DNA from: Acidobacteriota bacterium
Lineage (GTDB): Bacteria > Acidobacteriota > Aminicenantia > Aminicenantales > Aminicenantaceae
Assembly (NCBI GenBank): GCA_030669585.1
Contig: DAOVDI010000001.1
Span: forward strand, 994-64,993
Direction of reading: 5' to 3'
DNA: 64,000 nt
Below are positions 8,805-63,964 of this stretch, one piece after another. The number at the start of each line of letters is the position of its first letter. Within the stretch, counting starts at the first letter, position 1. Under the pieces are notes generated by a model. The model was not told where the DNA came from, searched no databases, and worked only from the letters and a program-made list of their open reading frames with translations. The translations under genes were made by a program, and so were the position numbers.

Positions 8805-10034
8805 GTGATAGAAATTTTTCGAATGACAACACACAAAAAATATATCATCCTGGCAGCAATGGTCATTCTCACCATTACGCAGGTTTTACCCTGCGAATAC
8901 AACATACGTGATTCCGGTTTTGTGGAGATAGCGCCACAACCTTATCTACTATATTTTTATGTGGACAGCGCCATCTCCGAAGAAAAGATTCGATTTTTCA
9001 ATAAAATTTCCCAAACCCTCTTTAGAGATACAAATATCACTCCTGAGACCATCCATATCAAAAAATCCAAAAAATCCACAGCTTTGGAGTATTTTCGTTT
9101 CTGGAACATCGATTCCCTGCCCGCCCTCATCCTTGTCTCTCCTGACAAACGCTCCATACTTCTCCCCATAGACCATACAGAAAAAAATTTTGGTCAAGCT
9201 CTCTGGGATACCCTGGACAAAACTGCGGTCTCTCCTGTTCGAGACAAGGTGCTGGAAAACATCGTTCGATCATACGCAGTTATTCTTCTTTTTGAAGGTA
9301 AAGACCCCGCGAATAACCAGGCTGCGCTTAATAAGATCGATACAGCCAAAAAAAACATTTCCCGCCTGATGACCCAGCTTCCCAAACGGATCGAAAAACC
9401 ACCTCATCTTATTGTTCTCTCCCGAAACAAAATACGCCGGGAGAAGATCCTTCTCTGGAGCCTGGACATTGAAATAAACGGACCGGATGAATCTAAAATC
9501 GTGATCCTTTTCGGACGGGGACGGATTTTTTTAACACCGCTCAAAAGCAATCAGGTCTCATCCTCCCAACTGACCAACATCCTGTCCATTCTGGGCCTCT
9601 CCTGCGACTGTGGACTGGACAAGCGAGGCATGATGGGCCCCAGGCTTCCCCTGCGATGGGATGCTGCGATCCAGGCGCAGATCGTGAAGTATCTGGGTTT
9701 TGATGCTGAAAATCCCATGATCAGACAGGAAATCGCCGGCATCCTTTCCACGGAAAATTTCCGTTCGTCAGTACTCTCTATGGAAGAGAATAAAATTAAA
9801 GGCTCTTTGATGGAGCTTAATCTTTACAGCGAATCCATACAGTCATTCGGCCGGCGCTTCAGTTCAAAACGGATCTCACCGGCTCAAAATCAGGGCCTGG
9901 GCACATCCCGCTCCAACAGGACAGGGCCGGTATCAAATTCCATCCGGCTGGTTGCAGCCGGGGCAGTTATCCTTGCAATCATACTTGTCATAAGTCTAAC
10001 CATTTTTATAAAGAGACGGAGAAAAAAATTATGA
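8805..10034 (+). CDS. Hypothetical membrane-anchored protein with an N-terminal signal-anchor and a C-terminal TM helix followed by RRRKKL
   Basis: Hydrophobic N- and C-termini. Its stop overlaps the start of the downstream giant gene (ATGA), indicating an operon. Confidence 0.5.
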   Translation: MIEIFRMTTHKKYIILAAMVILTITQVLPCEYNIRDSGFVEIAPQPYLLYFYVDSAISEEKIRFFNKISQTLFRDTNITPETIHIKKSKKSTALEYFRFWNIDSLPALILVSPDKRSILLPIDHTEKNFGQALWDTLDKTAVSPVRDKVLENIVRSYAVILLFEGKDPANNQAALNKIDTAKKNISRLMTQLPKRIEKPPHLIVLSRNKIRREKILLWSLDIEINGPDESKIVILFGRGRIFLTPLKSNQVSSSQLTNILSILGLSCDCGLDKRGMMGPRLPLRWDAAIQAQIVKYLGFDAENPMIRQEIAGILSTENFRSSVLSMEENKIKGSLMELNLYSESIQSFGRRFSSKRISPAQNQGLGTSRSNRTGPVSNSIRLVAAGAVILAIILVISLTIFIKRRRKKL

Positions 10035-13000: not shown

Positions 13001-14590
13001 AGGGATTTCCGGACCGTTTTTGCCCTGGACGAGGAAACAGGCAAACTCAAATGGAAAAAAACTCTGGATTTTACAGGCTGCGGCGGAGATGCGCTTGCTT
13101 CGGCAGCACATAACGGTGTTCTCGTCTTTTTTTCAAACGTGGGCAGTCACGATGCGTGGCGTCACCAAACCGGTACACTACGATGGAAACGGATGATCGC
13201 CCTTTCTGTAGAAAACGGCACAGTGCTCTGGTCCAGAGCCAATAATTACAGGACGCGGCCTGTGATCGTGGAAAACCGCATTTACATCGAGCCGCGTGTC
13301 TGCGATCTGCATACAGGAAAGATTCTTAATCGCAGCCATCCTGTGAGCGGTCTGTCCGTTCCCTTCGAGTATCTGCGGCCAGGACATACATGTGCCATCA
13401 CATCAGCCTCGTCTTCGATGCTTTTTTACCGGTCGTCCTCCACAGCCTTTATGGATTTTGAAAAGGATGACGGAGTAAGTCTGTTCGGCGCTATCCGTCC
13501 GGGGTGCTGGATCAGCCTAATCCCGGCAAGCGGAGTGCTGCTTTATCCGGAAGCCAGCGCAGGGTGCACCTGTTCTTATCCTATTCGTGGATCTCTTGTC
13601 TTAAAACACAAAAAAAACCGCTGGTCTAAAGGCAAGATGTTCATCACACACGGTCCTATGACCCCGGTCAAGCATTTTTCAATAAACCTCGGCTCTGTAT
13701 CGGATATGAAGGACAGCGAGGGGAATATCTGGTTCGCCTATCCCAATCCCGACACGAATTATACAAGCAATCACTATCCCGACTACGGTGTCAAATTTGA
13801 CCTGAATGATCAGGTTCCCACAGGGATGGGATACTTTTCCGGAGACTTCCGGAACATATCCATATCCGGGACCGACAAGCCATGGCTTTTCACATCCGGG
13901 GCCGCAGGGATCACTTCATTCGAGATCCCCCTGATCGATGATATCTGGGGCGAGGCACCCGGAACATATACAGTGCGACTGGGATTTAAAGTTCCATCCA
14001 ACGACCGGAGAGGGCAACGTGTTTTTGATATCAAAATACAGGGGGAAACAGCCGCCGGTAATTTTGATATCCGCAGAGAGACAAAAGCCGGGTCAGATGT
14101 CGTGATCCGGGATTATACGGGAATGAGCGTATCCAATACACTGGCTATTGAGCTGGTACCCAGGATGAAAAATCCTGGATTGGACAAAACCCCGGTGATC
14201 AATTTTATCCAGGTGCTTCGGGAAGGCGATCCAGGTATTATGGCGGAAGTTGAAAATGAAGCGCTTAAGAATTATCACTCCATCTTGAAAAGATCTACAC
14301 AAAAAGATCTCAAAATAAAAGCTCTGGAGGGAATTGCATTTATCGCTGACCCAGTTTCTCTTCCCCTGATCAAAAATTATTGTGAAAATATCGACCCGGT
14401 CATCCGGGATTACAGAGACCAGGATAAAGACCTCAAGAAGAGCGCAACCCTGGCATTCCTTGCTATCGCCGATAATATCGCAGAGTATGACAAAGACAAA
14501 TCATTTAGAATGCTGAACAGAGCCATGGCTTTTACTCCCCAGGAAGACCTGGAGACACTACAGGAGATCACGTCCAGATTAAGGAAATAA
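10031..14590 (+). CDS. Giant secreted protein of 1519 aa with PQQ-like beta-propeller repeats, a central coiled coil and a C-terminal HEAT-like region
   Basis: Signal peptide, repeated PQQ-type motifs (YAPSVCNKRLYFGSDDGLVYCLNAKNGKMIWNY and similar), and a coiled-coil segment around residues 340-400. Confidence 0.6.
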   Translation: MNTTYMFKNKLKTTLFLTLAAMIFVQCGSIDQPGDAWKTYRYDNSRSGYSPASITLPMELKWHFRSLQPPRPAWPEPSEEMKRIQMDNALHAVTAYGSVFFASSADHSVYALDIQTGKEQWHFFAQGPVRYAPSVCNKRLYFGSDDGLVYCLNAKNGKMIWNYRAGPTSEKVLGNGHMISLWPVRSSVLIDKGVVYFGAGVFPYEGLYICALDAKDGHVVWKNDTIGDREHELIFGGISPQSYLLASDNILYIPSSRAMPAAFDKKTGEFLYYLEPGGKIGGVWALLDQDHLIAGIDLSGTPAKAVYDEKTGEKQEDMHAWFPGIDLVVSRDISFTLTQDGVYALDRKQYLNLQKNQLKDLREKKENLRSRLRDIYSRISDANDQALDKLNQERESITHLIDELTEVEGKLKPEMFKWAFSRKNLYTMIRAGDFLFAGGDGYIIGLNIQTGEKLWELDVSGKVMGLTAVKNHLIASTDMGHVYCFAPNGSSTKSAEIKQKNNNPPFINNKKSNLYRSGVKNLLSQTGIQKGYALVLSDAPEQLAYELAKQTELYVVALVKNKKQANKARKKLFSSGLYGTKIVFEPWDLEYLPDYFANLIILDKRTWKTNIFSSKEIFRVLKPYGGTAVFGSFGKDNQNEFKSNTKEIKEWLKEVVPESRINMHKDTPWLFFTREELEGAGAWTEEYGNPGNTACSGDELVKGPLAVLWFGEPGSQQMLDRHAKAQSPLSKDGRLFIQGEEVILAYDAYNGTKLWEKELPGAVRPRADVDGGNFSLNSTGLFVGAKDHCYRLDPGSGKTQKIFALPDTSASGAFRWAHVSSTETTLFGSRGMALPREYFFIRNTLTEKTKWKDLEDIPEEYQDLYISMKTRYPDPEDGLLEDFKRSGILWRVMTEFPDWENYNIQQGALTDRIMTSDMVFALEPQTGKIKWIHRGHRIAHITISKESGKIFFAENQVTSADKQKARKEMLRLIQDEIYIQGDERHVKESERDFRTVFALDEETGKLKWKKTLDFTGCGGDALASAAHNGVLVFFSNVGSHDAWRHQTGTLRWKRMIALSVENGTVLWSRANNYRTRPVIVENRIYIEPRVCDLHTGKILNRSHPVSGLSVPFEYLRPGHTCAITSASSSMLFYRSSSTAFMDFEKDDGVSLFGAIRPGCWISLIPASGVLLYPEASAGCTCSYPIRGSLVLKHKKNRWSKGKMFITHGPMTPVKHFSINLGSVSDMKDSEGNIWFAYPNPDTNYTSNHYPDYGVKFDLNDQVPTGMGYFSGDFRNISISGTDKPWLFTSGAAGITSFEIPLIDDIWGEAPGTYTVRLGFKVPSNDRRGQRVFDIKIQGETAAGNFDIRRETKAGSDVVIRDYTGMSVSNTLAIELVPRMKNPGLDKTPVINFIQVLREGDPGIMAEVENEALKNYHSILKRSTQKDLKIKALEGIAFIADPVSLPLIKNYCENIDPVIRDYRDQDKDLKKSATLAFLAIADNIAEYDKDKSFRMLNRAMAFTPQEDLETLQEITSRLRK

Positions 14591-14601
14591 AAAATATGGA
14601 G

Positions 14602-14847
14602 TTACTTCTTATATATATCGCCTCTTGTATCAATTTTTAAAATCTTGATAATCTCTTTATCTTTTATAAACAGAATTCTATATTTTCCAAGTCGCAAACG
14701 AAAAATATTTTTCACACTTCCCCCCTTATATTTTCTCACATCCCCTTCACCAGGGAGATTTTCACATGCTTCAACAAGTTTTTTAGCGGTTTTTAGTTCC
14801 AGTTTTTTTAAATATTTCAGGCTTGATCTGCTGAAAAAAACAGTCAT
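14602..14847 (-). CDS. Type II toxin, RelE/ParE family
   Basis: 81 aa with the ...GDVRKYKG...FRLRLGKYRILF...KILKIDTRGDIYK pattern. It overlaps the upstream antitoxin by 4 nt. Confidence 0.7.
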   Translation of the reverse strand: MTVFFSRSSLKYLKKLELKTAKKLVEACENLPGEGDVRKYKGGSVKNIFRLRLGKYRILFIKDKEIIKILKIDTRGDIYKK

Positions 14848-15098
14848 AAATCGAGATTCTTTTTGACATCATCAATCGAAATAAATTCGTCTTTCTCTAA
14901 GATTTCCAGAATTTCTTCTTCATCTTGAGCACTGAGAATTATTTCTTCTTTTTTCCCCATTATATTTTTAATCCAATCTCTTAATGAAAGACGAATAATA
15001 TTAGAAATACTCTCATTCCTGATATAAGAAAGTGCTCGAAGCTTCTTATAAAGATCTTCATCAATAGTTATATTTAATCTTTTCATCTGATGCCTCAA
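14844..15098 (-). CDS. Type II antitoxin, ribbon-helix-helix (CopG-like)
   Basis: 84 aa with an N-terminal RHH-like segment (NITIDEDLYKKLRALSYIRNESISNIIRLSL). It overlaps the toxin by 4 nt. Confidence 0.55.
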   Translation of the reverse strand: MRHQMKRLNITIDEDLYKKLRALSYIRNESISNIIRLSLRDWIKNIMGKKEEIILSAQDEEEILEILEKDEFISIDDVKKNLDL

Positions 15099-15312
15099 TA
15101 CATATATACATCATTGCGCATAATATTTCAATATTTTCACAATTTTCCTCACACCCCATTTACATATTCTATCTGTGTAAGGATTTCTTGCATTTGAAAA
15201 GCATTCTATCCATAATATCTGGGGAAATTTGTGGCATAATTCTTGCTTCATATCAGTTAGAAGTACGGTCTCAATGTTCCAAGGTTGGAATAAACGTATC
15301 AGGAGGTGATGA

Positions 15313-15540
15313 ATGAATAAGGCACTGATTTTCATTTTAGCGTTTTTATTGGCGTATTCCGCTTGTACAGAAAAAATAGAGGAAACGGTGGAAAAGCAGC
15401 CGGAATATCCTGTTCTCATAGAAACAGTGGATGGCATCAAGACCATTAAAAACCCGGATTTTCCCCGTGACGGTCAAATCCAATATAAATTTGCAGAGGA
15501 ATTGTCCATTGGAGGGGAAGGCGAATCATGGTCGTGTTAG
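15313..15540 (+). CDS. Lipoprotein N-terminal fragment. Probably the 5' part of a frameshifted six-bladed beta-propeller lipoprotein gene.
   Basis: Signal peptide with a lipobox (LAYSAC). It ends at a TAG and overlaps the next ORF in another frame. IGGEGE resembles IGDEEGEG of the paralogue at 45514. Confidence 0.45.
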   Translation: MNKALIFILAFLLAYSACTEKIEETVEKQPEYPVLIETVDGIKTIKNPDFPRDGQIQYKFAEELSIGGEGESWSC

Positions 15541-15908
15541 GTTACAACAAAGATTACTTGATCAACGTTTTAGACTTTGAAGGGAATCCCCTTTTTCGAT
15601 TCAAAAGGGAATACATCCCGGGAAAATTCGAAGCTTGGAAACCTGGCAGCATCCTGCCAAAATTTAATCCGGCTTTTTACAAATATATAATTCTTGACGA
15701 CAACAAAAACCTCTGGTTCAGACAGTACACTAAAAGTACTGTAACAGACAGTATATATGATATTTTTTCCCCAGACGGTATTTATATCCAACAGGCTGTC
15801 GTGCCTCACCGCATATATCAGATAAAAAACAGAAAGGCTTACTGTATCATCCGGACCGAGGAAGACTATCGTATCGTCAAACGCTTTAGAATGATAGAAT
15901 TGGAATAG
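15528..15908 (+). CDS. Beta-propeller lipoprotein fragment, continuation of 15313..15540 after a frameshift
   Basis: Its frame-0 reading frame is open from 15489. Similar to the N-terminal region of the 45514..46731 protein. Confidence 0.45.
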   Translation: MVVLGYNKDYLINVLDFEGNPLFRFKREYIPGKFEAWKPGSILPKFNPAFYKYIILDDNKNLWFRQYTKSTVTDSIYDIFSPDGIYIQQAVVPHRIYQIKNRKAYCIIRTEEDYRIVKRFRMIELE

Positions 15909-15975
15909 TTGGTATCAGCTTTAATCAAGTTGAAATATAACAAACGAGACAAACGGGATGAACGAGATTAACAAG

Positions 15976-17454
15976 TCATGAATGATGGAGGCTGGAATTT
16001 TTTGTGTCCAACATAACATTCTGACGAAAATCCGCCACGATTTTTGTTCCTTTCCGCGGTTTTAACAGATTTAGAAGTTTTAAATAAAGCTTGTTTTTCC
16101 TGTTCCAGTGGGCGTTGAGACTGCGGGCATACCAAGCGATAGAAATATCCATAAACCTAAACCGCAGTAAACGGCGTAGGGACTGCAATGGAGAGTAAAA
16201 CCGTCGGTGCGCCCACATTTGGGCTCGCTGCAGCTCTTCAAGCGAAAAATTTTTCGGCTGGAACACAACATGGTGAGCATCATACAGGCTCCAGTCCGAA
16301 AAACGGATGCGGCCTTCGGAAAGGAGGTCTTCATAACACCGGGTTCCCGGTAAAGGTGTAAGGATCAGAAATTGGGACGAGTTCAGACAATACCGCTTGG
16401 CAAAACGGACCGTATCCTTCACGCTTGCAAAGCTGTCATTTTCCAACCCCAGGATAAACATCCCATGGACATGGATGCGATGCTTTTGAAATATTCGAGC
16501 CGCCCTTTCCATTTCAGCCAGACTTTGCTGCTTTTTGACTGATTTTAAGCTCTCTTCGTTCACCGATTCAAACCCGATGTAAACAGTGTGACAACCCGCC
16601 CGTCTCATCAATCGGACCAGATCTTCGTCCCCGGCAAAGTCCACCCGCACCTGAGTAGACCATCTGAATTTGAATTTTTCAGCTTCCATAGCTTTGAGAA
16701 GCTCTGCAGCCCGCTTGGAATTTGCCCCGAAGTTGTCGTCGTAGAAGAAAATATCATGTTTACGGTCATCGTAGAGGCGCAGTTCATTGATGATGTGTTC
16801 TATAGAACGGTACCGGTATCTTCGGCCGAACATCCCAGTCACCGAACAAAACGAACAGTCAAATGGACACCCCCTTGATGTCTGAAATGGAATAAGCCGC
16901 CAACCTGCGATACATTTTGGTTTTCCTTTGATAAGCGAAAAATCAGGATAGGGCAGAAAATCAAGGTCTACAGGTACAGCCTGGTTCATATTATGACGGA
17001 TGTCTCCGTTGATCTTGTAACTGAGATTGGGCACTTCCTCTAGATCATCCTCATCTTCAACTGCTTTTAAAAACAACGGAAATGCTGTTTCCCCCTCTCC
17101 ACGGATCACAAAATCACAATGACCCAGGGCCTCATCAGGAAGGAAGGTGACATGAGGACCACCCATCACTACCGTGATCCCCATGGAACGCACTCGATCG
17201 GCAATGGCATAAGCACGCGGCGCTGTGGAGGTGATCGTAGAGATTCCCACAATGTCAGATGCTGCTATTTCGTTCCAGTCGATCTCAGCCTGCTCCTCGA
17301 CCATCACAGAAGCTTCCCAACCGTTCTGTTTGGCAATAGTACCCAACAGGATTGTTCCCAGACGGGGAAGAGGAAACTTCGAAAATATATGTAAATTCGG
17401 GGCCTTTGGTTCAATAAAAGTTATTTTCATTTGGATACACATTCCTTTTTTCAT
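15976..17454 (-). CDS. B12-binding domain radical SAM protein (class B). The true start may be the internal ATG at 17430.
   Basis: N-terminal B12-binding-like region and a CxxxCxxC-type motif (SRGCPFDCSFCS). Confidence 0.8.
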   Translation of the reverse strand: MKKGMCIQMKITFIEPKAPNLHIFSKFPLPRLGTILLGTIAKQNGWEASVMVEEQAEIDWNEIAASDIVGISTITSTAPRAYAIADRVRSMGITVVMGGPHVTFLPDEALGHCDFVIRGEGETAFPLFLKAVEDEDDLEEVPNLSYKINGDIRHNMNQAVPVDLDFLPYPDFSLIKGKPKCIAGWRLIPFQTSRGCPFDCSFCSVTGMFGRRYRYRSIEHIINELRLYDDRKHDIFFYDDNFGANSKRAAELLKAMEAEKFKFRWSTQVRVDFAGDEDLVRLMRRAGCHTVYIGFESVNEESLKSVKKQQSLAEMERAARIFQKHRIHVHGMFILGLENDSFASVKDTVRFAKRYCLNSSQFLILTPLPGTRCYEDLLSEGRIRFSDWSLYDAHHVVFQPKNFSLEELQRAQMWAHRRFYSPLQSLRRLLRFRFMDISIAWYARSLNAHWNRKNKLYLKLLNLLKPRKGTKIVADFRQNVMLDTKNSSLHHS

Positions 17455-17457
17455 GGT

Positions 17458-18201
17458 TCACGCTGTTGTTTTTTGAGTAGACATCTTCACGTTCTTGCTC
17501 TTCTTTTTGCCAGTCTGGGTTAACTTTCCTATAACATGAGAGATGTCTTTCTTCTTTTTCTTAATAAGGTCTTCCCACCTTTGAATTCCCTGTTTAAGCC
17601 CCATTATACGCTCGTTCAGTTCTGTGATTTTGCTCTGCAGTAGTTCCAGCCGCTTTTTCGCTTCATCACGGGAAAGATCCGAAACTCCCCTGCTGATTGT
17701 AAGGAAATCACGAAACAGGTCTGAAGCCTCCTTGATTTGTTCCAGGGAATACCCGAAATTCTGAAGGTCCTTGATAAGATTGCATATATCGATATAGGCC
17801 CGTGAATACAGCCGGTAACCGCCAGGGCTTCGGCCTTCTGGTTGAATGATGCCCTTTTCCTCCCAATATTTAATGGTTCTGGTATTCAATTCCGCCTGAC
17901 CGGCCAGCTCTCCGACCGTAATGAACTCGGTCGCCTTCTCTTTCGCTTTTTTCCCGGCAATAGTTTCAGGAAGACCCACTTTCCGCACAATCTTCTGAAT
18001 GCTTTCAATGTCATATCCAAACTTTAGAAGCTGCTGAATATGTTTAGCCTCACGAATATTCGTATCCGTATAATAGGGAATCTGATCATCAATTTTTCCC
18101 GGGTGTCGAATTAGCCCCAACTTTTCCCAATCGTCCAGATCCTCGCTGGAGAGGGCAAGAAGCTCTATAAATTCCTTTTTATTATAGACATTTTTATTCA
18201 T
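17458..18201 (-). CDS. MerR-family transcriptional regulator with two tandem MerR-type HTH modules
   Basis: Two HTH_MerR-like segments (FIELLALSSEDLDDWEKLGLI and FITVGELAGQAELNTRTIKYWEEKGII) and a C-terminal coiled coil. Confidence 0.7.
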   Translation of the reverse strand: MNKNVYNKKEFIELLALSSEDLDDWEKLGLIRHPGKIDDQIPYYTDTNIREAKHIQQLLKFGYDIESIQKIVRKVGLPETIAGKKAKEKATEFITVGELAGQAELNTRTIKYWEEKGIIQPEGRSPGGYRLYSRAYIDICNLIKDLQNFGYSLEQIKEASDLFRDFLTISRGVSDLSRDEAKKRLELLQSKITELNERIMGLKQGIQRWEDLIKKKKKDISHVIGKLTQTGKKKSKNVKMSTQKTTA

Positions 18202-18233
18202 ATTTGCATCCGTTTACGTTTATGTTTTATCTT

Positions 18234-18260
18234 CCTATCAGTATACGTATAGGAATATAC
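18234..18260. promoter_or_regulatory. Palindrome CAGTATA-N11-TATACTG upstream of the MerR gene. Candidate operator.
   Basis: 7-bp inverted arms located 35-60 bp upstream of the merR-like start. Confidence 0.3.
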
Positions 18261-18437
18261 TGCCAGCTAATCAGCCTGTCAAGTATTTTTTTGCTGTTGT
18301 TAATGTCGGAGTTATTACAATCATTATCATCCTGGGTTTTGCTTATTGATATATAATGAGTTAGAATTTTGTGACAGGCTATTGATAATATAATATTTAG
18401 ACAAGTAAATTATAATTATATTCTATAATTTGTGACT

Positions 18438-19844
18438 TTATTTTCTGTCTTTTTTCTTAATTAATGTTAACTTTAATATTAAAAAGGATATACATGAAAC
18501 AACCACACCAAATACACTGGGTTGAATTATTTCTTTATATTGCGTATTCATATATCCAATAGTTGTAGTGGTAGAAATGAGCATTGTTATAAAAATTATA
18601 TTGTTTAATGCTTTTGATTTTTGTTTCGAAAAGATACCAAAAAGCACAGGTAAAATAATACCTGGAGCCCAAAGATTATAAGTTAAAAGAAGTAAATCAA
18701 TTATATTAGGTAATATAAGCGCTAAAACTATTCCCAACCCACCTAAGCAAACTGAACTTATACGTGCAATTAAAAGACCTTTTTGTTTATTAGTATTTGA
18801 TTTAGAAATATATTGTTCGTAGAAATCTTTAACAAAGATTGCTGTAGATGAGTTTAATATTGAATCAGCAGATGACATAACTGCACTCATTAAAGCAGCG
18901 ATTATTAAACCACCTACATAAGGATTATTCAATTTTAGTATAGTTTTTGGCAATGCCATTTCCGAATCGATATTGGGAAAATGCAGCCGGGCATAAAGAG
19001 CAATAAAAAATAATACTATGGGAAATGTTAATGCCAAAAAGACACCAGCACCAACAATACCCTGCTTTGTTTCTTTTATATTTTTGGCAACGCAATATCT
19101 GGTCGCATAACTCGGTGCAAACGTTTCTCCTAATAAAAAAGCTATGAAAGTTGTCACTAAAAAAAGCCACCCTTTTCCACCTTCCAATTGAAAAAATTCA
19201 GTAGGAACAGCAACAGAAATTTGATCAGCCTGCGTTAATAAATCAGGTACACAAAGAATTAAAGTAACCGCAAAACCAAGAAGCAAGATAACAAATTGAT
19301 AAACATCGGTATGAATAACAGCTAATAGCCCGCCAGCAGTACTGTATAAAATCACTATGCCACCGCCAATAATAACAGCCCAAAAGTAAGGTAACTGGGG
19401 AATCATTGTCGTGATGATTTTCCCGAAAGCCACCATTTGCGCTCCTAAAATACCGATAGAAAATAAAAGCGATAATATAAAAGCCACAAATCGACTTTTT
19501 ACACCAAATCGAAAACCAAAATATCCAGCAACAGTATACAGTTTTGCTTCACGAAAACGGGGAGCTACAAATAAACCAGAAAATATAAAATGAATATACC
19601 AGCCAGAAGAAACCGCTAACATCAGGATTCCCCACTCATAAGTTCTGCCAATAGCACCAATTGAAGCGCCACCGCCAATGACTGTTGCCCCCATTGTACA
19701 AAGCAAAAAAAACCAGCCAATATTACGTCCTGCAACTAAAAAGTCGTCACTATCGTTAATTTCTTTTGAGCGACGGATTCCTTTCGTAACAATAAATATA
19801 AAATAGACGACAATAATTATATATTGAATCCAGGGATTTTCCAT
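18438..19844 (-). CDS. Sodium:solute symporter family transporter
   Basis: 468 aa, multi-TM, SSF-like motifs. AT-rich compared with its flanks. Confidence 0.75.
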   Translation of the reverse strand: MENPWIQYIIIVVYFIFIVTKGIRRSKEINDSDDFLVAGRNIGWFFLLCTMGATVIGGGASIGAIGRTYEWGILMLAVSSGWYIHFIFSGLFVAPRFREAKLYTVAGYFGFRFGVKSRFVAFILSLLFSIGILGAQMVAFGKIITTMIPQLPYFWAVIIGGGIVILYSTAGGLLAVIHTDVYQFVILLLGFAVTLILCVPDLLTQADQISVAVPTEFFQLEGGKGWLFLVTTFIAFLLGETFAPSYATRYCVAKNIKETKQGIVGAGVFLALTFPIVLFFIALYARLHFPNIDSEMALPKTILKLNNPYVGGLIIAALMSAVMSSADSILNSSTAIFVKDFYEQYISKSNTNKQKGLLIARISSVCLGGLGIVLALILPNIIDLLLLTYNLWAPGIILPVLFGIFSKQKSKALNNIIFITMLISTTTTIGYMNTQYKEIIQPSVFGVVVSCISFLILKLTLIKKKDRK

Positions 19845-20917
19845 TACAAGACATTCCAGAGCCCAAAAATATCTTTAAGATGATCACCAAAATCAAGAAT
19901 TGCCATCTGTGCTGGTTCTGCTCTGATGATATCTAAATCTTGAGTTTTAATATGATAGGAATTTTGAATTTCCCAATTGTTATTGATTAATTGATCTATA
20001 TGCTTAAAACTGTACCAGTGCGATTTATAATTTGAATATGTATTGATATCACCAATTTCAATAGTTTGTTCTGTTTTATCAGGGTCTCTTTCCAATACAT
20101 GATCTTTTTCTATCAAATTATCATGCATATCAAAAACATCGACGATTAGCTTATTATCTTTGCTGTGTGCGAGTTTATATTGTTTGGGAATTTGTTTGAA
20201 TTGAGATGAAGCATAAGTGTCGGATTGCATCCAAATAGGTTGCCCTGAAACATCCATTGTCGATTCATACTGTCCTAACCCATAACTTTCAATATATTCT
20301 TGTTGATAACAGGAAATTATGGCAATTCCTTTAGCCGATTCAACAGCCCTGCGCATGGATTTAAACAATTCATTTGCCCCTTCAAAACCCTGCATTACAC
20401 CTATAGAATTCACTAAACAAATTGCAATAGGTAAAATATCATCTGGTTGCTCTCCTAACTCAAATGCAGAACCTTGTTCAAATGTAAGTGCGATTTTAAG
20501 ATGATTTTTCAAACCAACTTTTTGCAATTTATCTTTTGCCAGATCAATCATGTTTTGAGAAAAATCGATTCCCCATACTTCTCTAAGACTTGTCGCTATA
20601 ACTGGATCGTAAGCAAGCTTTGGAGAATTCATTTTTAATGAAACTAAAGGATGTGATTGAGCGAGTTCAGCTATACTTTTTGTTTTAGCGCCATATCGTA
20701 TATGCAAACGGCCCGAACCACAGCCTATATCCATCAACTTTATGGTACGTTTTTGTTTTGCAGACAAATAGTGAAGGACACGATCTAAAAAATCTTCTTC
20801 AAATTCTTCAAAAGCTAAAATGTCGGGATGTCCCCCGACAATTTGGCGTTCATAAGTTTCTGCACATTCATCCCATGTTTGTTTATCTGTTTCATATTTC
20901 TTTTGTAAAGAATCCAT
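19844..20917 (-). CDS. Class I SAM-dependent methyltransferase
   Basis: Motif I LMDIGCGSGRL. AT-rich. Confidence 0.7.
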   Translation of the reverse strand: MDSLQKKYETDKQTWDECAETYERQIVGGHPDILAFEEFEEDFLDRVLHYLSAKQKRTIKLMDIGCGSGRLHIRYGAKTKSIAELAQSHPLVSLKMNSPKLAYDPVIATSLREVWGIDFSQNMIDLAKDKLQKVGLKNHLKIALTFEQGSAFELGEQPDDILPIAICLVNSIGVMQGFEGANELFKSMRRAVESAKGIAIISCYQQEYIESYGLGQYESTMDVSGQPIWMQSDTYASSQFKQIPKQYKLAHSKDNKLIVDVFDMHDNLIEKDHVLERDPDKTEQTIEIGDINTYSNYKSHWYSFKHIDQLINNNWEIQNSYHIKTQDLDIIRAEPAQMAILDFGDHLKDIFGLWNVL

Positions 20918-20920
20918 AAA

Positions 20921-22585
20921 TTATTTCACTCCTTTCAAAAAACGCATTTCAATATAATTATCGTTAAATCCCAATTTTTTATAGAGTTTTATAGAAGGAT
21001 TTGTCTTTTCCAAGTGTAATTTAACATCTCCATCAGCACAGTCAATCGCTTCTCGAATCAACCGACTGCCCAATCCTTTCCCCCGATAATTTTGATGAAC
21101 ACAAACATAAACAATTAAATTTTCAGGTATAATACCGACTTTATTGAGTTGTATACAAACAATAACGCCAAGAAGCTTTTTATCAATTGTGGCTAATAAA
21201 ATAAAACCTTTACCGCCTGGATGAGCAGACAAAGCATATTCAACAGCAGTAGAAATAACATCTTTTGGGTCATCGAATGGCATAAGATGCGTTTGTAAAA
21301 AATTTACAATATCATAAAGGTTCATCCATTCAGGCAGTTCATTTTCTGTTTGAAAATATCGAATGTGAATATCATCTGTTTTTTCTTGTTCAATAACAAT
21401 TTCTGATGTAACATCCTGTTCGTCAATTTGATAATTTCTGGCGATGCTATTACCAAAACGCATCATTAATTCTGCAGCAATGGTATCTGATTTTTCAGCC
21501 AGTTCATTTATGTCGATTTCTTGTTTTCCTTGTCGACCAATTATTAGTACTTCATCCCCGATTTTAGTATCTTTGATTTCAGTGATATCCACTGTTGATG
21601 AATTCATCGATATGGCGCCAATAAATGGTGCTTTTTTTTCATGAACAATAACATAGCCACCGTTCAATAGTTTACGATCTAAACCGTGATTATATCCTAT
21701 GGGAATTGTGCCAATTATTAAATCTCGTTCTGTTTGTTCTTTGGAACGGTAACCAATTTTGCTTCCTTTTGGCAATTGTCGAATTTGTACAATTTCTGTT
21801 TTTAAGCTCATGACAGGTTTTAATTGATTTAGTTTTGTTTTTATTTTGTATTGCTCTGGAGGAAGGACACCATATAATAATATCCCCAGGCGGACACCGG
21901 CGGCAACAGTTTCAGGATGAGCTAAAAAAGTAGAGCTGTTTGCAAAATGCAAATAATAAGGGGCAACATCTTCTAATTTTAATTTTTCATAAATTTTTTT
22001 TAAATGTTTAAATGACTCAAGAGCGCTGGTGGAATCACGGGATTGTCCAAACAATCCATCTAATTCAATATGTGTTTTAGATATTGCTTCTTTTGCAATT
22101 TTATGTACTTTGGATGGCGCGACTCCCAAACGATTTAATCCAATATTTACATTTAAATGAATTCGGCAAATTTTTCCCATTAATTGAGCAGCATCTTCTA
22201 ACGGCTGTAAAATGGATTCATTAATGACAGAAACACTTAAACTATGCCGTACAGATAATTCTGCCATCCAGGTAGGGATTGGATTCATTAATAATATTTC
22301 ACCTGTAATGCCTTCGTTACGGAGCCGAATTCCTTCCTGTGGAGATTCAACTGCATAATGCATACAACCTGATTCGGAAAGGACTTTCCCAATTTCTTTT
22401 AGACCATGCCCGTAGGCATCGGATTTTATGACAGCATAAAATAGCACTCCTGGAGGAAGTTGTGATTTTAAATATCGATAATTAAATTTTAAAGCTTCAA
22501 GATCAATGTTTAGTTTATTCCAGGGGTCTTCGTACTCTCTTTGTACCAATGGTGGTGAAAGGCTATCTTTATCTTTATTATTCAC
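20921..22585 (-). CDS. Alanine racemase-like PLP enzyme fused to a C-terminal GNAT N-acetyltransferase
   Basis: PLP-lysine motif AVIKSDAYGHG at the N-terminus. GNAT motif (HQNYRGKGLGSRLI) in the C-terminal 150 aa. Confidence 0.7.
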   Translation of the reverse strand: MNNKDKDSLSPPLVQREYEDPWNKLNIDLEALKFNYRYLKSQLPPGVLFYAVIKSDAYGHGLKEIGKVLSESGCMHYAVESPQEGIRLRNEGITGEILLMNPIPTWMAELSVRHSLSVSVINESILQPLEDAAQLMGKICRIHLNVNIGLNRLGVAPSKVHKIAKEAISKTHIELDGLFGQSRDSTSALESFKHLKKIYEKLKLEDVAPYYLHFANSSTFLAHPETVAAGVRLGILLYGVLPPEQYKIKTKLNQLKPVMSLKTEIVQIRQLPKGSKIGYRSKEQTERDLIIGTIPIGYNHGLDRKLLNGGYVIVHEKKAPFIGAISMNSSTVDITEIKDTKIGDEVLIIGRQGKQEIDINELAEKSDTIAAELMMRFGNSIARNYQIDEQDVTSEIVIEQEKTDDIHIRYFQTENELPEWMNLYDIVNFLQTHLMPFDDPKDVISTAVEYALSAHPGGKGFILLATIDKKLLGVIVCIQLNKVGIIPENLIVYVCVHQNYRGKGLGSRLIREAIDCADGDVKLHLEKTNPSIKLYKKLGFNDNYIEMRFLKGVK

Positions 22586-22789
22586 TATTTTTTTCCTGTA
22601 ATTTATTCACTGATTTGTCAGTACACAGCTACCCGTTTGCCATGACACGCGAGGGATGACGCGTTCGGCGCGCTATTCCTGGTCGCTGTCGATGGCTTTG
22701 GTCGGCGTCACTAGCACATTCCTTGCTTGAACTCCCCCCATAGTCTGGACAGGAAACAGGCTTTTTTAAGGTGCATTCTGTGCCTGTTT

Positions 22790-23130
22790 ATAATGTTTTC
22801 ATATTATCCCCATGTTTGTCAAAAAAACAAAGCTCTGAGAGCCTTTATAAGCTGCGATCTCAATTCCGTCCATGCTGACATCAATATTTCTTTCTTCCAG
22901 AACCTCAATAAATTGTTCTCTCGTGTACTGAGATCCTTGAACCGAGTTGAATATCTCCGGTCTGGATACGGACAGCGCTTTCTTCAGGGCATCGACGCAG
23001 AAGCCTTTTTCCACTTGCCGACCTGATTGGGATGAACCCCAAACTCACTGGACAGTTGGGCTATGGTCTTTTCTCCCCGGACCGCTTCGAGCGCCACCGT
23101 GGCTCGGAATTATTCATCACAATTTTTTCT
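22790..23130 (-). mobile_element. IS3-family insertion sequence remnant. An OrfA HTH fragment is joined to an OrfB integrase-core fragment with an internal stop and frameshift.
   Basis: Reverse-strand translation gives ...[35 protein letters not shown]..., then in another frame ...FNSVQGSQYTREQFIEVLEERNIDVSMDGIEIA.... There are no intact ORFs. Confidence 0.7.
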
Positions 23131-23326
23131 CATGCTGCCTACCATTGTACCATACCTCATTTAAGGCTAATGGCAGGCCAAAATCCACCTTAATGCCTTG
23201 TCCACTTTCTGGGGAGTAGTTCAATGTGATTTATGTTCAGAATTATAGGAATTTCCCTCCTCTCTAGCGCTTGACAATCCTTTTTTGCAGAATTATGCTT
23301 TTTTCTGTAGTTGACTCTAAAGCAAG

Positions 23327-24094
23327 ATGATAAAAACTGTAGTCATTGTGACCATGCCCCGCAGCGGTTCCTCCCTTCTTGCCGGTATCCTTCAATGTTT
23401 AGGAGTATGGATGGGAAAGGAAGAGGACTTAAGGGTGGGGAATCATCTCAATAAGTACGGTTGTTATGAGAACCAGGACTTTATCGCCCTTAGTGAAAAC
23501 ATGCTTTTTAATGCGAAAAAAATGCCTGACCATTCACGGCGTTTTGATGAGGATGATGAAATTATGGAGCATGTGGTTAAAAAAATCGGGGACAAAATCA
23601 AGAAAGTGATCAAGGAGAGCGAGCGCGAACTGTGGGGATTCAAGAATCCCACCATCATTTACACCCTGCCCTATTTTCATCAGTATTTGACCAATCCTTA
23701 TTACATCCGCCTCAACCGGGACCTGGACAGTATTGCCCGCTCCTTCCTGAAGACCGCTAGACCGCGGAATTGGTTACCCGAGATTAGACATGAGTTCTCT
23801 TACTTCACGGTATACGACCGAATAAAGATTATTTTTAGGTTCCTAAAAGCATACATGAAAAAGGGAAATATTTTACGAAACTACGACTTTCAAAAAAAGA
23901 TAGCCGAAGATGGATACAAGCGTATCGATAGATTCCTCAAAGGCAAAAGGCATCTAACCATCGATCTGGAGGACCTTCTCCACAATTCCCAAAAGATGAT
24001 TCAGGAGATCATCGCTTTTTTAGAGATTTCCCCAAAGCCTGGACAGATACAGGATGCCCTGGGTTTTATCCATCAGGGTCTGATATCTTTTTAA
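23327..24094 (+). CDS. Sulfotransferase family protein, PAPS-dependent
   Basis: 5'-PSB-like motif TMPRSGSSLL at the N-terminus. Confidence 0.65.
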   Translation: MIKTVVIVTMPRSGSSLLAGILQCLGVWMGKEEDLRVGNHLNKYGCYENQDFIALSENMLFNAKKMPDHSRRFDEDDEIMEHVVKKIGDKIKKVIKESERELWGFKNPTIIYTLPYFHQYLTNPYYIRLNRDLDSIARSFLKTARPRNWLPEIRHEFSYFTVYDRIKIIFRFLKAYMKKGNILRNYDFQKKIAEDGYKRIDRFLKGKRHLTIDLEDLLHNSQKMIQEIIAFLEISPKPGQIQDALGFIHQGLISF

Positions 24095-24149
24095 CAGCTT
24101 GGTCCATATCTTTAGTATTTGGATTTTGTATATAAGACCAGAAAGCGAA

Positions 24150-24845
24150 ATGAAAAAAAACACATTTCAGATTTCAGACAAGAGAACCTTTCTTGTTTTT
24201 GGTAGTGTGCTGTTTGGAATTGAACTGGTTATTTTCGTCTTATTGCTCCTCCTTGATTCCACTCTTGCTGTGAGGATTCTCTCTATGATATCAGCCAATC
24301 ATCTGGGCGGGAGGATGGCGTTCATAGGAGTGGGTTTTGAATTCGGCCTTCCTTCATCCCTTATCATTTTCGTCATTCTTTTGTACAACACCACCTATCT
24401 TCTCATCTTGAATTTTCTCATGGTCTATTTTCAGGAGAAAATACAAAAAGTCAAATTCATCCATCGATACATTGAATCTTTGAAGGAAATAGCGGAAATG
24501 AGAGCACAGTCCATGAAGAAGTGGCGCTGGATAGGCATTATAGTGTTTGTCTGGTTACCTCTCCCCATGACCGGAGCTGTGATGGGGTCCATTATAGCCT
24601 ACATAGAAAGATACAACATAAGGAATACGCTTCTTATGGTGATCCCTTCTATGTGGCTTGGAGTCGTTAGCTGGACCCTGTGGTTTGATGAGCTTTATAC
24701 CTTCACCGATCAATTCGGGAAAGGCAAAACCCTTATCCTCACTTTGTCTCTTATACTCCTTCCTCTCCTTTATTATTTACTCAATATAATAAAGAAAGCA
24801 ATGAAAATGAGAGGAAGGGAGGAAAAAGACTATGGTGATAAATAA
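24150..24845 (+). CDS. Hypothetical polytopic membrane protein. The ORF track begins it at a TTG at 24099. The ATG at 24150 is the more likely start.
   Basis: About six predicted TM helices. The translation begins MKKNTFQISDKR. Confidence 0.5.
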   Translation: MKKNTFQISDKRTFLVFGSVLFGIELVIFVLLLLLDSTLAVRILSMISANHLGGRMAFIGVGFEFGLPSSLIIFVILLYNTTYLLILNFLMVYFQEKIQKVKFIHRYIESLKEIAEMRAQSMKKWRWIGIIVFVWLPLPMTGAVMGSIIAYIERYNIRNTLLMVIPSMWLGVVSWTLWFDELYTFTDQFGKGKTLILTLSLILLPLLYYLLNIIKKAMKMRGREEKDYGDK

Positions 24846-26104
24846 TCCAATATATATTCGATCACCTCTTCGGCCCTCAAAGGCTCAAAACACCTGACTT
24901 TTCGGCAGTTTATAAACAGCTTATCCAGGCAGGTCAGATTCTTACAGGGAGGATTGCCTTCGAATATCTTTGACGGGGCCTCCTGGCAGGCTGCTAGGTA
25001 CTCCTCCGAAAAGCTGTCATAGCCGTAGATTCTTGCGCTCGTGGCCCCGAATATTCCCACAATAGCGGTGGAATTTTTAAACTGGTAGTCGGATTTCAGT
25101 AGAATTTTTTCCGCTGCGGCGATATGCATGGGAGCTGTATCACCGGTAATAACTATTTCAGATTGGTCGATCAGTCCGGAGAAGACATCAAGGGGAATAT
25201 CCTTTTGGAGAATGACTATCCTTCTTCTCAAATGGAGCGTGAGGGCTTCCATAAGCTTTATTTCTATATCTTTGAAGACAAACCCGCAGTTGAGAAGGAT
25301 GGTAGTGTTTGGACAGGAGAGAATTCCTTTTAGCAGTTTCAATTGGTATTCAAAGGGTATCAGGGTGAAACGGGAACCGGTATCCGGATTGTAAAAAATC
25401 TTTCTCGAGCGGGAATTCAGGTTCAATTTGTCCATAGTCGTCTGTATTTCTTCCCAGACCTGTGGTTCAAAATAGAGTCGGAGACAGGAATTCAAGGCTG
25501 TGGTCTGAGCTTCAATTCTGGATCTGGTAGGGATTTCTCTGGCCAATTCTTGCGCATATTTTACAAGTTGGTAGACCAAGTGGGCTTTCTGGTTTCTACA
25601 TGTATAGGCCCGAACGATATTCCCTATCAACCTTAGTGGATAGATGACCGGAGTACGAATACCCTTGAATATGGTCTTGGGCAGGTAAGGGCAAAAATTG
25701 ACAATAAGATCAAATTTATTCTCTTTGACGAGGCTGTTCAAATTTGCAGCATCCCTTCTTGAAGGATAACCGAGATTCCCAAAAAGTGGAAAATGTCTGT
25801 CAATATTTGGATTGGCTTTGATTAAGGGATACGCCTTGCGCTGGTAGACATAGCTGACTTCAACGTCAGGAAAGAAATTTTTAAAGGCAGGGATGAAGAC
25901 CTGAGTCATAATCGCATCACCGATATTGATATCGGGAACAATTAGGACTTTTTTCAAATGCGTTATTCGGCTGAGACGTTTTTTTTCCAGGATTTTTAAT
26001 AATCCACTGAACTGACGGCTGCAGAACAGGCCTTTCGCTATCCATTCTATAAGAGGTTTAGAAATTCGGGAAATTGGTCTGCTCAGGTGTTTTACGCTCT
26101 TCAT
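24830..26104 (-). CDS. Glycosyltransferase family 9 (heptosyltransferase-like)
   Basis: GT9-like N-terminal region KKVLIVPDINIGDAIMTQVFIPAFKNFFPDVEVSYV. Confidence 0.65.
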   Translation of the reverse strand: MKSVKHLSRPISRISKPLIEWIAKGLFCSRQFSGLLKILEKKRLSRITHLKKVLIVPDINIGDAIMTQVFIPAFKNFFPDVEVSYVYQRKAYPLIKANPNIDRHFPLFGNLGYPSRRDAANLNSLVKENKFDLIVNFCPYLPKTIFKGIRTPVIYPLRLIGNIVRAYTCRNQKAHLVYQLVKYAQELAREIPTRSRIEAQTTALNSCLRLYFEPQVWEEIQTTMDKLNLNSRSRKIFYNPDTGSRFTLIPFEYQLKLLKGILSCPNTTILLNCGFVFKDIEIKLMEALTLHLRRRIVILQKDIPLDVFSGLIDQSEIVITGDTAPMHIAAAEKILLKSDYQFKNSTAIVGIFGATSARIYGYDSFSEEYLAACQEAPSKIFEGNPPCKNLTCLDKLFINCRKVRCFEPLRAEEVIEYILDYLSP

Positions 26105-26276
26105 GATGGATGCTGAGTGTTTCCACGGAATTTTTCGAACCTATATATATGCATATCATATTGACTGATGGAGTTCAAGCGGGCACTTGCTTTCCCCTTA
26201 TAAGGACATGACAGACATTATTCATTTTTGTCTGGCGAAAAAGACGAGGGGATAGGAGAGGTTGAGAAGATGCTCA

Positions 26277-26325
26277 AAGCACTTATTAAGTCGTTAGAAA
26301 GAAAAGCACTTGAACCCTTTGCATC
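26277..26325. repeat. Fragment of the mosaic repeat family, GCACTTATTAAGTCGTTAGAAAGAAAAGCACTTGAACCCTTTGCATC
   Basis: Near-identical to 2075-2125. Confidence 0.8.
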
Positions 26326-46731: not shown

Positions 46732-46739
46732 GTTTATTG

Positions 46740-46815
46740 GGTTCATTGTGTTCTTTGAGTTATTTTAATTAGATTTAACTCAATAAACCCAATAAGCTCA
46801 ATGAGCTCAAAGAAC
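46740..46815. repeat. Long imperfect dyad of the mosaic repeat family, with about 30-bp arms around TTTTAATTAGATTT
   Basis: tttattgggttcattgtgttctttgagtta...taactcaataaacccaataagctcaatgagctcaaagaac. There is a homologue at 1970-2040 and fragments at 63965-64000. Confidence 0.6.
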
Positions 46816-46818
46816 TGG

Positions 46819-46838
46819 ATTCCCGTTTACACGGGAAT
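46819..46838. repeat. Hairpin module ATTCCCGT-TTAC-ACGGGAAT
   Basis: Same module as 2041-2060 with one loop difference. Confidence 0.7.
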
Positions 46839-46887
46839 GACGAGACAAACGAGATGTACGATTTTATGAATCATTCAGAATCCCTGG

Positions 46888-63936: not shown

Positions 63937-63964
63937 CTTACTACCTCCATTTAATAATATTATT

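Follow-up and report, generated by a model that had tools for sequence, protein, structure and literature searches.

A recently imported racemase-acetyltransferase-methyltransferase-symporter cassette in an Aminicenantes genome

The cassette and its recent arrival

A 64,000-nucleotide stretch of an Acidobacteriota genome (family Aminicenantaceae; assembly GCA_030669585.1, contig DAOVDI010000001.1, forward-strand positions 994 to 64,993), here called the window, carries on its minus strand three closely packed genes. They encode a fusion of an alanine racemase (Alr)-type pyridoxal 5'-phosphate (PLP) enzyme to a GNAT acetyltransferase, a class I S-adenosylmethionine (SAM)-dependent methyltransferase and a transporter of the sodium:solute symporter family (SSF; Table 1). 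Only 3 nt separate the Alr-GNAT and methyltransferase open reading frames (ORFs), and the symporter start overlaps the methyltransferase stop by 1 nt, a spacing that indicates an operon. Pfam recognizes Ala_racemase_N (1.5e-43), Ala_racemase_C (3e-37) and GNAT (1e-12) domains in the fusion and SSF (1.7e-44) in the transporter; the methyltransferase gives weak matches to Methyltransf_31/25/11. These ORFs and matches agree with the families and the co-directional arrangement over 18438..22585 that had been named from the letters alone (the original prediction). The genes are intact and under purifying selection: all three products are full length (554, 357 and 468 aa, as in their families), without frameshifts and with the invariant residues retained, and the ratio of nonsynonymous to synonymous substitution rates (dN/dS) against the nearest copies is 0.07-0.23 (0.09-0.15 for the Alr-GNAT gene), although this divergence is mostly older than the insertion in this genome.

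The cassette stands apart from its surroundings in composition. In 500-bp windows, G+C content (GC) is 0.27-0.39 over 18000-22500, whereas both flanks lie at 0.42-0.50; the AT-rich island has a GC of 0.338 against 0.450 for the remaining window. GC at third codon positions (GC3) is 0.235, 0.243 and 0.225 in the cassette genes compared with 0.505 +/- 0.052 in the other ORFs of the window (n=38), which places each gene at a z-score of about -5 and confirms the AT-richness noted earlier. The same DNA is absent from related strains. The contig L038 (25,966 bp) is collinear with the window and skips from 18304 to 26309 (L038:346-2674 aligns to window 18304-15976 at 94.7% and L038:2-111 to window 26418-26309 at 97.3%), so that the strain-specific region spans 18305-26308, or 8.0 kb. 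At this empty site only 234 bp, carrying a dispersed repeat, lie between the junctions, and L039, from a different sample, has a junction identical to that of L038. In protein clusters at >=90% identity, the cassette proteins have 1-2 members (2 for the Alr-GNAT fusion) versus 10-12 for host proteins, and the housekeeping proteins of the window fall into clusters with proteins named Candidatus Aminicenantes.

Close relatives of the cassette are found elsewhere at the DNA level. Over 4120 bp, the whole window cassette is 84.2% identical to that of L045, which has a GC of 0.34 between flanks of 0.28. The contig L042 is 90.5% identical to window 20958-18379 (2580 bp); in L042-L044 this identity of 90.5% covers the methyltransferase and symporter genes plus 60 bp beyond, and the module there has a GC of 0.28-0.35 with a downstream flank of ~0.50. 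Copies in L010, a contig from a metagenome-assembled genome (MAG) of Fidelibacterota, and in L004 are 84% and 81% identical, respectively. These nearest copies reside in contigs not named Aminicenantes. The cassettes of Aminicenantes MAGs (L013-L015) have host-like GC, occupy other loci and encode a methyltransferase protein only 57-59% identical to that of the window, which means that the cassette is not a core, syntenic trait of the lineage. The deviant GC3, the absence from the ~95%-identical L038 and L039, the 84-90% DNA-identical copies in unrelated contigs, the low similarity of the Aminicenantes' own versions and the dN/dS values all speak for transfer. The window copy was recently imported from a low-GC donor pool, in line with the horizontal acquisition suggested originally. 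Taken alone, such a transfer event is ordinary.

Upstream of the fusion gene lie a leader and a remnant of an insertion sequence (IS). A GC-rich segment of about 100 bp, also pointed out in the original prediction, occupies 22626-22725 of the leader; its 40-bp windows reach a GC of 0.55-0.68, flanked by stretches of 0.25-0.30. On folding, the leader gives a minimum free energy z of -3.0. An Rfam scan of the whole window returned nothing at the gathering threshold, and the local search gave only one chance snoRNA match (E=9); the idea that the leader holds a riboswitch or another RNA of known type was rejected. No homologue of the leader was found upstream of the cassette copies at other loci, an exact 24-mer from it is absent from metagenome contigs, and four translated leader segments (three minus-strand frames) had no Pfam match. 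In minus-strand translation, the adjoining IS3-like element comprises an OrfA-type helix-turn-helix (HTH) piece and, in a different frame, an rve piece, EIFNSVQGSQYTREQFIEVLEERNIDVSMDG, with stops interrupting. Pfam scores are concordant and below threshold (HTH_Tnp_1, 21.2 bits versus 24.1; rve, 19.4 versus 32.6; HTH_28 also in agreement). About 345 bp are recognizable, compared with ~1.2-1.5 kb for a full-length IS3, and no terminal inverted repeats or target-site duplication were found around them. The element is only a remnant, as the earlier description of a decayed IS3-family element implied. It does bound the AT-rich part; however, the region missing in relatives is larger than the 18202-23130 first delimited and includes the IS scar, which separates its AT-rich part from its host-like part.

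The state of this upstream region bears on whether the window copy is functional at all. The GC-rich fragment and IS scar are unrelated to the upstream region of any other copy, and no convincing sigma-70-like promoter was detected on the minus strand over 22586-22900, by a scan model that does not cover Aminicenantes promoters. The copy might thus be a non-functional passenger, imported with or beside the IS, deprived of its native promoter and heading to decay. We consider this improbable, given full-length ORFs free of frameshifts, conserved invariant residues and the low dN/dS, even though most of the divergence predates the insertion.

Table 1. Features at the cassette locus and in its vicinity (positions in the window).
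Feature	Position	Strand	Basis
Cassette operon (Alr-GNAT, methyltransferase, SSF symporter and ~60 bp 3' flank)	18379..22585	-	AT-rich, imported
Alr-type PLP racemase-GNAT fusion, 554 aa, GTG start	20921..22585	-	Pfam, TIGR00492
Racemase domain, residues 25-386	21428..22513	-	Alignment to G. stearothermophilus Alr
GNAT domain, residues ~405-554, acetyl-CoA motif YRGKGLGSRL	20924..21373	-	Pfam, AF2 model
Cassette-specific class I SAM methyltransferase, 357 aa, extra C-terminal beta domain	19844..20917	-	Pfam, AF2 model
SSF transporter, 468 aa	18438..19844	-	Pfam SSF
Cassette 5' leader with GC-rich segment	22586..22789	-	GC profile
Internally deleted IS3-like remnant, OrfA HTH and rve fragments	22790..23135	-	Translations, sub-threshold Pfam
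Strain-specific 8.0-kb mosaic (AT-rich cassette, leader, IS scar, host-like three-gene segment)	18305..26308		Empty site in L038, L039
Host-like segment in strain-specific region, outside conserved cassette	23299..26243		Host-like GC3, L040/L041 match
Sulfotransferase	23327-24094	+	Pfam
Sm_multidrug_ex membrane protein	24099-24845	+	Pfam
GT9-like protein, 424 aa, C-terminal Cys residues conserved	24830-26104	-	Pfam
ParE toxin	14602-14847	-	Within 14598-15975 insertion
Ribbon-helix-helix (RHH) antitoxin	14844-15098	-	Within 14598-15975 insertion

A recurrent four-function unit

A search for the same genes in other taxa shows that the window cassette is one of many. Searches with the fusion protein and the methyltransferase gave ~85 full-length fusion clusters and ~220 clusters, respectively, all from metagenomes or MAGs, and a scan of one genome per species (185,579 species) located at least 28 loci. 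The cassette occurs in at least 15 phylum-level groups, represented by MAGs throughout. Among bacteria these include Fidelibacterota, KSB1, Aminicenantes, Ignavibacteria, Verrucomicrobiota, Coatesbacteria, Polyangiaceae, Hydrogenedentota, Spirochaetales, Deltaproteobacteria, Nitrospiraceae, Sumerlaeota, Chitinispirillaceae and Bacteroidetes; archaeal carriers are Bathyarchaeia and ANME-2. In every locus examined, the methyltransferase gene is followed by the symporter gene and the gene order is constant. Two types differ in what precedes this pair. Type I loci (for example the window, L001, L002, L004, L005, L009, L011-L017, L035 and L045) have the Alr-GNAT fusion ahead of the methyltransferase, and type II loci, at least 17 in number, have a separate GNAT of 146-159 aa and then a racemase of 357-390 aa with an Ala_racemase_N domain only. 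Where the Alr-GNAT fusion is recognizable, the methyltransferase comes next in 14 of 14 loci and the SSF gene in the 13 not ended by a contig edge.

Beyond these components, nothing recurs. When 455 ORFs gathered over all loci were clustered all against all, no other family recurred, and a Pfam census of 109 neighbour proteins found 180 families, each in at most three proteins, with sulfatase (3 loci) and OtsA/OtsB (2 loci) the commonest. No relatives of the methyltransferase were detected on 72,556 plasmids or in 50,697 phage records. Racemase, GNAT, methyltransferase and SSF symporter are therefore the sole recurrent components over ~30 loci from many phyla.

Gene architecture ties the four functions together more closely still. 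The metagenomic protein P0411 (752 aa) joins an ornithine-racemase-like domain (1-390) to the cassette methyltransferase (391-745), and is a second, independent fusion within the pathway. In L042, a decayed GNAT 3' end of ~40 nt persists upstream of the methyltransferase, and the genes in front of the methyltransferase-symporter pair encode a separate GNAT (41% identical to the window GNAT domain) and a type II racemase. This is a recent non-orthologous replacement of the racemase in an otherwise near-identical operon, which argues that both racemase types do the same job on the same substrate. Two independent fusions and this replacement make unusually strong genomic evidence for one pathway of four proteins. 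The original prediction of a small uptake-and-modification cassette is upheld to the extent that recurrent order, fusions and replacement identify a real functional unit; the order of its steps and its substrate are inferred. We regard the transfer of the window copy together with the unity of the cassette as very likely. In full-text literature searches, neither this set of genes nor plausible products of it turned up, in agreement with the earlier view that no described pathway could be recognized. The cassette is a small amino-acid-tailoring operon that draws on known superfamilies in an undescribed composition and has its own methyltransferase family.

Several loci show variations on this plan. 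Directly upstream of the methyltransferase-symporter pair of L007, a 280-aa orphan protein (L007:9127-9969) has 'IIIPCNT' and 'SGCTD' motifs that resemble those of two-cysteine Asp/Glu racemases. As a candidate for a third racemase type it is no more than a lead, since it gave no significant match in Pfam, NCBIfam or the PDB or to a P. horikoshii aspartate racemase, and no relatives in metagenome contigs. In L009, a sigma-70-family gene (9121-9975; 284 aa) sits between the Alr-GNAT and methyltransferase genes of an otherwise standard type I cassette. In the Bacteroidetes MAG locus L036, an ordinary Alr (12403-13554; TIGR00492, 296 bits) directly follows a complete type II module, an arrangement in which the module racemase and canonical Alr coexist.

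Active-site residues and a proposed modification of amino acids

The racemases provide indications of the substrate. Residues were numbered after G. stearothermophilus Alr (sequence checked against 1L6F/1SFT), and 28 cassette-type racemases, mostly fusions, were tabulated beside 13 ordinary Alr proteins from the same search. The window domain matches PF01168 (149.5 bits) and PF00842 (127.5 bits) and passes TIGR00492 (270.6 bits, cut-off 168). It keeps Lys39, Tyr43, Arg136, Ser204, Arg219, Tyr265' and Met312; across the family the catalytic Lys39/Tyr265' pair and the PLP ligands Tyr43, Arg136, Ser204 and Arg219 are conserved in 27-28 of 28 members. Other active-site positions have changed almost uniformly: D313N is present in 28/28 cassette-type racemases, D131N and Y354A each in 27/28, K129N and G266R/H each in 26/28 and H166Q in 25/28. 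Ordinary Alr proteins have Lys129, Asp131, His166 and Tyr354 in 13/13 and Asp313 in 11/13. The domain belongs to the Alr fold family but lacks the residues that define specificity in alanine racemases, and it is not an ordinary Alr.

These substitutions also bear on the simplest explanation of the locus, namely that it holds an ordinary housekeeping Alr with unrelated neighbours and that its AT-richness is a native quirk, not a mark of transfer. The score on TIGR00492 (270 bits versus 168) would accord with such a role, as would the proximity of alr and rimI in some genomes, of which the M. tuberculosis alr-groEL1 operon is an example (PMC5335608). Yet the gene is absent at this locus from the ~95%-identical L038 and L039; Tyr354, Lys129, His166 and Asp313 are all replaced family-wide; the methyltransferase follows the fusion in all 14 loci and the SSF gene in the 13 uncut ones; L036 has an ordinary Alr besides the module; and GC3 lies 5 s.d. 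below that of host genes. Strain comparison and active-site changes effectively exclude a housekeeping alr.

Precedents for the altered positions come from characterized enzymes. Tyr354 gates alanine specificity: the Y354N change raises serine racemization 62-fold, and VanT has Asn at this position (PMC4542195). In the Lys/Arg-preferring racemases Lyr (Thr391) and Bar (Ala393), the equivalent of Tyr354 is replaced and the carbamylated lysine is missing (PMC3485190). VanT-type models are not passed by the window racemase domain (NF033131, 265.6 bits versus 460; NF033132, 153 versus 900). On the ornithine racemase model NF040742, the type II enzymes reach 253-329 bits, short of the cut-off of 480, and in 16 sequences the PLP Lys, two Arg residues and an Asn-x-x-Cys motif are conserved. 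In Salmonella OrnR, the Cys164 of N-x-x-C is the catalytic base, a cysteine invariant in 945 OrnR sequences (PMC13397332). The losses of Tyr354 and Lys129, together with an OrnR-like type II enzyme, speak against alanine as the substrate and for a side chain that is long and probably basic. That the substrate is a basic amino acid we suggest tentatively, on these residues.

The GNAT and methyltransferase components resemble known amine-modifying enzymes in fold. The GNAT domain matches Acetyltransf_1/7/10, and its YRGKGLGSRL matches the acetyl-CoA pyrophosphate-binding motif R/Q-x-x-G-x-G/A. Its AlphaFold2 (AF2) model (pLDDT 88) has 428 PDB GNAT matches at E<=0.001 in Foldseek, and neighbours such as AAC(3)-I, RimI, Hpa2, DpA and SSAT are amine, polyamine and N-alpha acetyltransferases; identity as RimI is not indicated by TIGR01575 (31 bits, cut-off 86.4). 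In the methyltransferase family, D63, C66, G67, S68 and G116-x-D118 are invariant and G65 and G69 nearly so, with DIGCGSG as the window motif. The AF2 model (pLDDT 92) has 392 PDB methyltransferase matches at E<=0.001, with a best TM-score of ~0.42, and supports placement in the class I SAM-dependent superfamily. Those neighbours that are named are mostly N-methyltransferases, among them CcbJ, ToxA, the cap guanine-N7 methyltransferase, GNMT, EgtD and NTMT1; identification as a glycine/sarcosine methyltransferase was rejected at this best TM of ~0.42. No sequence relative in the PDB lies below E=0.02, and among NCBIfam families (UbiE/MenG, CpaM, OvoA-C, BchM and daptide methyltransferase) the best score is 26 bits against cut-offs of 158-216. 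A hidden Markov model search of 1.84 billion cluster representatives gave 31 matches at E<1e-30, with scores that drop from >260 bits to ~75 bits outside the family, and ~20 of the representatives are full length. The family is sharply bounded and specific to the cassette.

The symporter aligns with 393 of 406 positions of PF00474 (152.8 bits, cut-off 22.8). It passes none of the models for known substrates (PutP, 99 bits versus 515.5; PanF, 91 versus 328; ActP, 23-37 versus 750-1099), and its best solved relatives are the choline transporter CHT1, vSGLT and SiaT (E~1e-15). With 46-86% amino-acid identity across loci, it is the most conserved component of the cassette. The N-methyltransferase neighbours, the amine and polyamine GNAT neighbours and the presence of CHT1 among the SSF relatives are weak pointers to amine modification and a cationic product.

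A scheme of racemization followed by tagging would accommodate these components. PLP chemistry requires a free primary alpha-amine, so racemization would come first, with the racemase bringing a free alpha-amino acid to equilibrium between its L and D forms. The GNAT, using acetyl-CoA, and the methyltransferase, using SAM, would then irreversibly modify one enantiomer, giving an N-acetyl/methyl derivative of D configuration. A racemase by itself works freely in both directions; coupling to enantiomer-selective steps driven by acetyl-CoA and SAM would make the conversion irreversible. The Na+ symporter would import the substrate or recapture the product. We judge this scheme somewhat more likely than not, and its product is probably a modified D-amino acid. 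The substrate may be of the ornithine or lysine type, with a side chain that is long and probably basic. With one amine of such a diamino acid acetylated and the other methylated, the product would be a zwitterionic, metabolically inert, betaine-like molecule, which in its D configuration would probably go unused by ordinary L-specific metabolism. Acetylated diamino-acid solutes already known are N-epsilon-acetyl-beta-lysine (made by AblA/AblB), N-delta-acetylornithine and N-epsilon-acetyllysine, and in the most speculative step of the scheme the product would serve as a compatible solute like N-delta-acetylornithine or N-epsilon-acetyl-beta-lysine. By this analogy an osmolyte role can be entertained, and we think it doubtful. 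Trehalose genes occur near two copies at unrelated loci (TreT and an OtsA-OtsB fusion adjoining the cassette at L045:4448-7836; an OtsA-OtsB fusion 3 kb away at L015:15788-17998) and lend the solute role faint support. In its entirety, our interpretation sees in 18379-22585 the recent import of a mobile four-function operon that is conserved and self-contained and acts on one amino acid, a reading to which we give somewhat less than even credence. A wider extrapolation we also regard as doubtful: here the module, with its two interchangeable racemase types, would encode an undescribed pathway to diamino-acid solutes of a new class, D-configured and both N-acetylated and N-methylated, and would pass between phyla of bacteria and archaea in anoxic sediments.

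Several observations weigh against this interpretation. The steps of the scheme are inferred, and the cassette members all come from uncultured organisms. Acceptor specificities of the methyltransferase and GNAT are unreadable from fold neighbours, the methyltransferase TM being only ~0.4, and the Arg or His after the catalytic Tyr (G266R/H, 26/28) could suit an acidic side chain instead. Genes related to osmolytes adjoin the cassette in only 2 of ~27 loci. L007 has the methyltransferase-symporter pair without a recognizable GNAT or PLP racemase. The cassette travels without any promoter or regulator, and in the window its native 5' region has been replaced by the unrelated GC-rich leader and IS scar. 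Lastly, the symporter is the best-conserved component, which uptake-first schemes fit at least as well as biosynthesis and recapture.

One such uptake-first scheme is scavenging or detoxification. The symporter would take up D-amino acids from the surroundings, where sediment necromass contains plenty of them, or else a toxic amino-acid analogue; the racemase would interconvert enantiomers, and the GNAT and methyltransferase would tag the unwanted form as inert or exportable. The conservation of the SSF and its translational coupling to the methyltransferase are compatible with this possibility, as is the GNAT, which resembles yeast Hpa2 (22-24% identity); Hpa3, the paralogue of Hpa2, has D-amino acids as substrates for N-acetylation. 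A comparable set of a racemase, transporters and an enzyme specific for the D form is found in the Salmonella OrnR operon (PMC13397332), and L008 has genes for a D-aminopeptidase (M55) and an MR_MLE protein nearby, although these neighbours are a single case. Importing a compound merely to inactivate it would, however, be wasteful, and assimilation of D-amino acids needs a racemase only, not acetyl-CoA and SAM. We rate this scheme as unlikely.

Instead of a bulk solute, the product might be a specialized metabolite of low abundance that derives from a D-amino acid and acts, for example, as a signal, as a building block for metal binding or as a substituent of the cell envelope. D-Ornithine does enter staphyloferrin A through an OrnR-family racemase (PMC13397332), and envelope genes lie near some copies (GT9-like and sulfotransferase in the window, TamB/Omp85 in L002, Transgly and PMT_2 in L005 and glycosyltransferases in L042). 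Nevertheless, the 455-ORF clustering and the census of 109 neighbours found no ligase, nonribosomal peptide synthetase (NRPS), NRPS-independent siderophore (NIS) synthetase or transferase that co-occurs with the cassette; the neighbours are heterogeneous, and an importer-type SSF would be odd for a secreted product. We see a specialized metabolite as quite unlikely.

Whatever the role, the cassette is a sharply delimited module that is known from MAGs alone and has its own methyltransferase family. Were the product a solute or tag derived from a D-amino acid, uncultured anaerobes would be seen to use D-amino acids in a new way, and an Alr-like subfamily whose current annotation is 'alanine racemase' would acquire a function. 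Three genes totalling 4.1 kb would then supply compact enzymes (a racemase-acetyltransferase and an N-/O-methyltransferase) for making modified D-amino acids.

Flanking DNA and related systems

The remainder of the strain-specific region is host-like. The three genes at 23299-26243 have a GC3 of 0.47-0.53, and the segment is 82.4% DNA-identical to L040/L041 of a more distant relative, where it stands in another context without the cassette; the 424-aa GT9-like protein, a member of a family with >220 clusters, shares 75% amino-acid identity with its copy in that relative. The block of sulfotransferase, Sm_multidrug_ex and GT9-like genes is mobile among Aminicenantes relatives (L040:5815-8779), and the Sm_multidrug_ex and GT9-like pair also adjoins the cassette in L001 (12152-14064; 47% and 54% amino-acid identity). 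A five-gene module that includes this pair was rejected: the pair sits beside the cassette in only two loci (window and L001), has host-like GC and, in closer relatives, accompanies the sulfotransferase without the cassette. Downstream, the host pair at 15976-18201 is kept in related strains and encodes a MerR-family protein (247 aa, in which the MerR HTH stretch occurs twice) and a B12-binding radical SAM enzyme, whose top NCBIfam scores (BchE, HpnJ-like) are far under the cut-offs. These were likewise dismissed as operon members, both being present and adjacent in island-less strains. A strong sigma-70-like promoter is located at 18282-18254.

No att sites or flanking direct or inverted repeats were found for the island, and the Rfam scan of the window contained no tRNA-family match. 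The dispersed intergenic repeat seen at the empty site (L038:112-345) recurs in the window at ~1754-2064, 46665-46842 and 63958-63997, in pieces 80-97% identical; it contains the hairpin ATTCCCGTTTCCACGGGAAT, and the related contigs L038 and L039 both end within it or close by. It may be a recombination hotspot or an element like a miniature inverted-repeat transposable element. A second AT-rich strain-specific insertion (14598-15975; GC 0.30-0.40) holds the toxin and antitoxin genes of Table 1 and two small ORFs without Pfam matches; it is missing from L038 and L039, where the PQQ-repeat gene and the radical SAM gene are directly adjacent. Among the 38 host ORFs, the sole other clear low GC3 outlier (0.33) is an aldehyde:ferredoxin oxidoreductase gene at 6920-8662, which is found in a related strain at 95.7% DNA identity and may be an older acquisition.

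Several known systems share parts of the cassette. Lyr of P. mirabilis and Bar of P. putida (PMC3485190) likewise have the Alr fold with the Lys/Tyr' pair, lack the carbamylated Lys129 and have a small residue at Tyr354. In contrast to these enzymes, the cassette racemase is cytoplasmic, fused to a GNAT and altered by H166Q, D313N and G266R/H; their stabilizing Asn after Arg136 is not present, and the cassette racemase has Asn or His before the Arg. It matches Lyr and Bar at 115-124 bits, about the same similarity as to ordinary Alr. VanT (PMC4542195) is also Alr-derived, altered at Tyr354, fused to a complementary partner and carried on mobile DNA, and it is the best solved-structure sequence match of the cassette racemase (4ecl, 1.4e-50). 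VanT differs in having Asn rather than Ala at 354, a membrane acyltransferase as partner and a role in D-Ala-D-Ser peptidoglycan. The window contains no van genes.

The type II racemase appears to belong to the ornithine racemase family of A. sticklandii Orr and Salmonella OrnR (PMC13397332). With its D-ornithine/lysine decarboxylase and transporters, the Salmonella operon combines a racemase, a transporter and a consumer of the D form, and is the nearest analogue of the cassette in operon logic. Unlike the OrnR and Orr systems, however, the cassette has a GNAT and a methyltransferase as partners instead of a decarboxylase or aminomutase, and the window copy uses an Alr-type racemase.

On the side of acetylation, the resemblance to the small amine-acting GNAT Hpa2 (1QSM) is at fold level only (TM 0.65-0.69 at the identity given above), and Hpa3 is a separate enzyme that is not known to have a racemase, methyltransferase or transporter as partner. 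The small AblA/AblB solute operon offers a parallel to the logic proposed for the cassette, in that its GNAT turns a rearranged basic amino acid into a zwitterionic solute by acetylation of one amine. In place of the lysine 2,3-aminomutase of that operon, the cassette has a racemase and a SAM methyltransferase.

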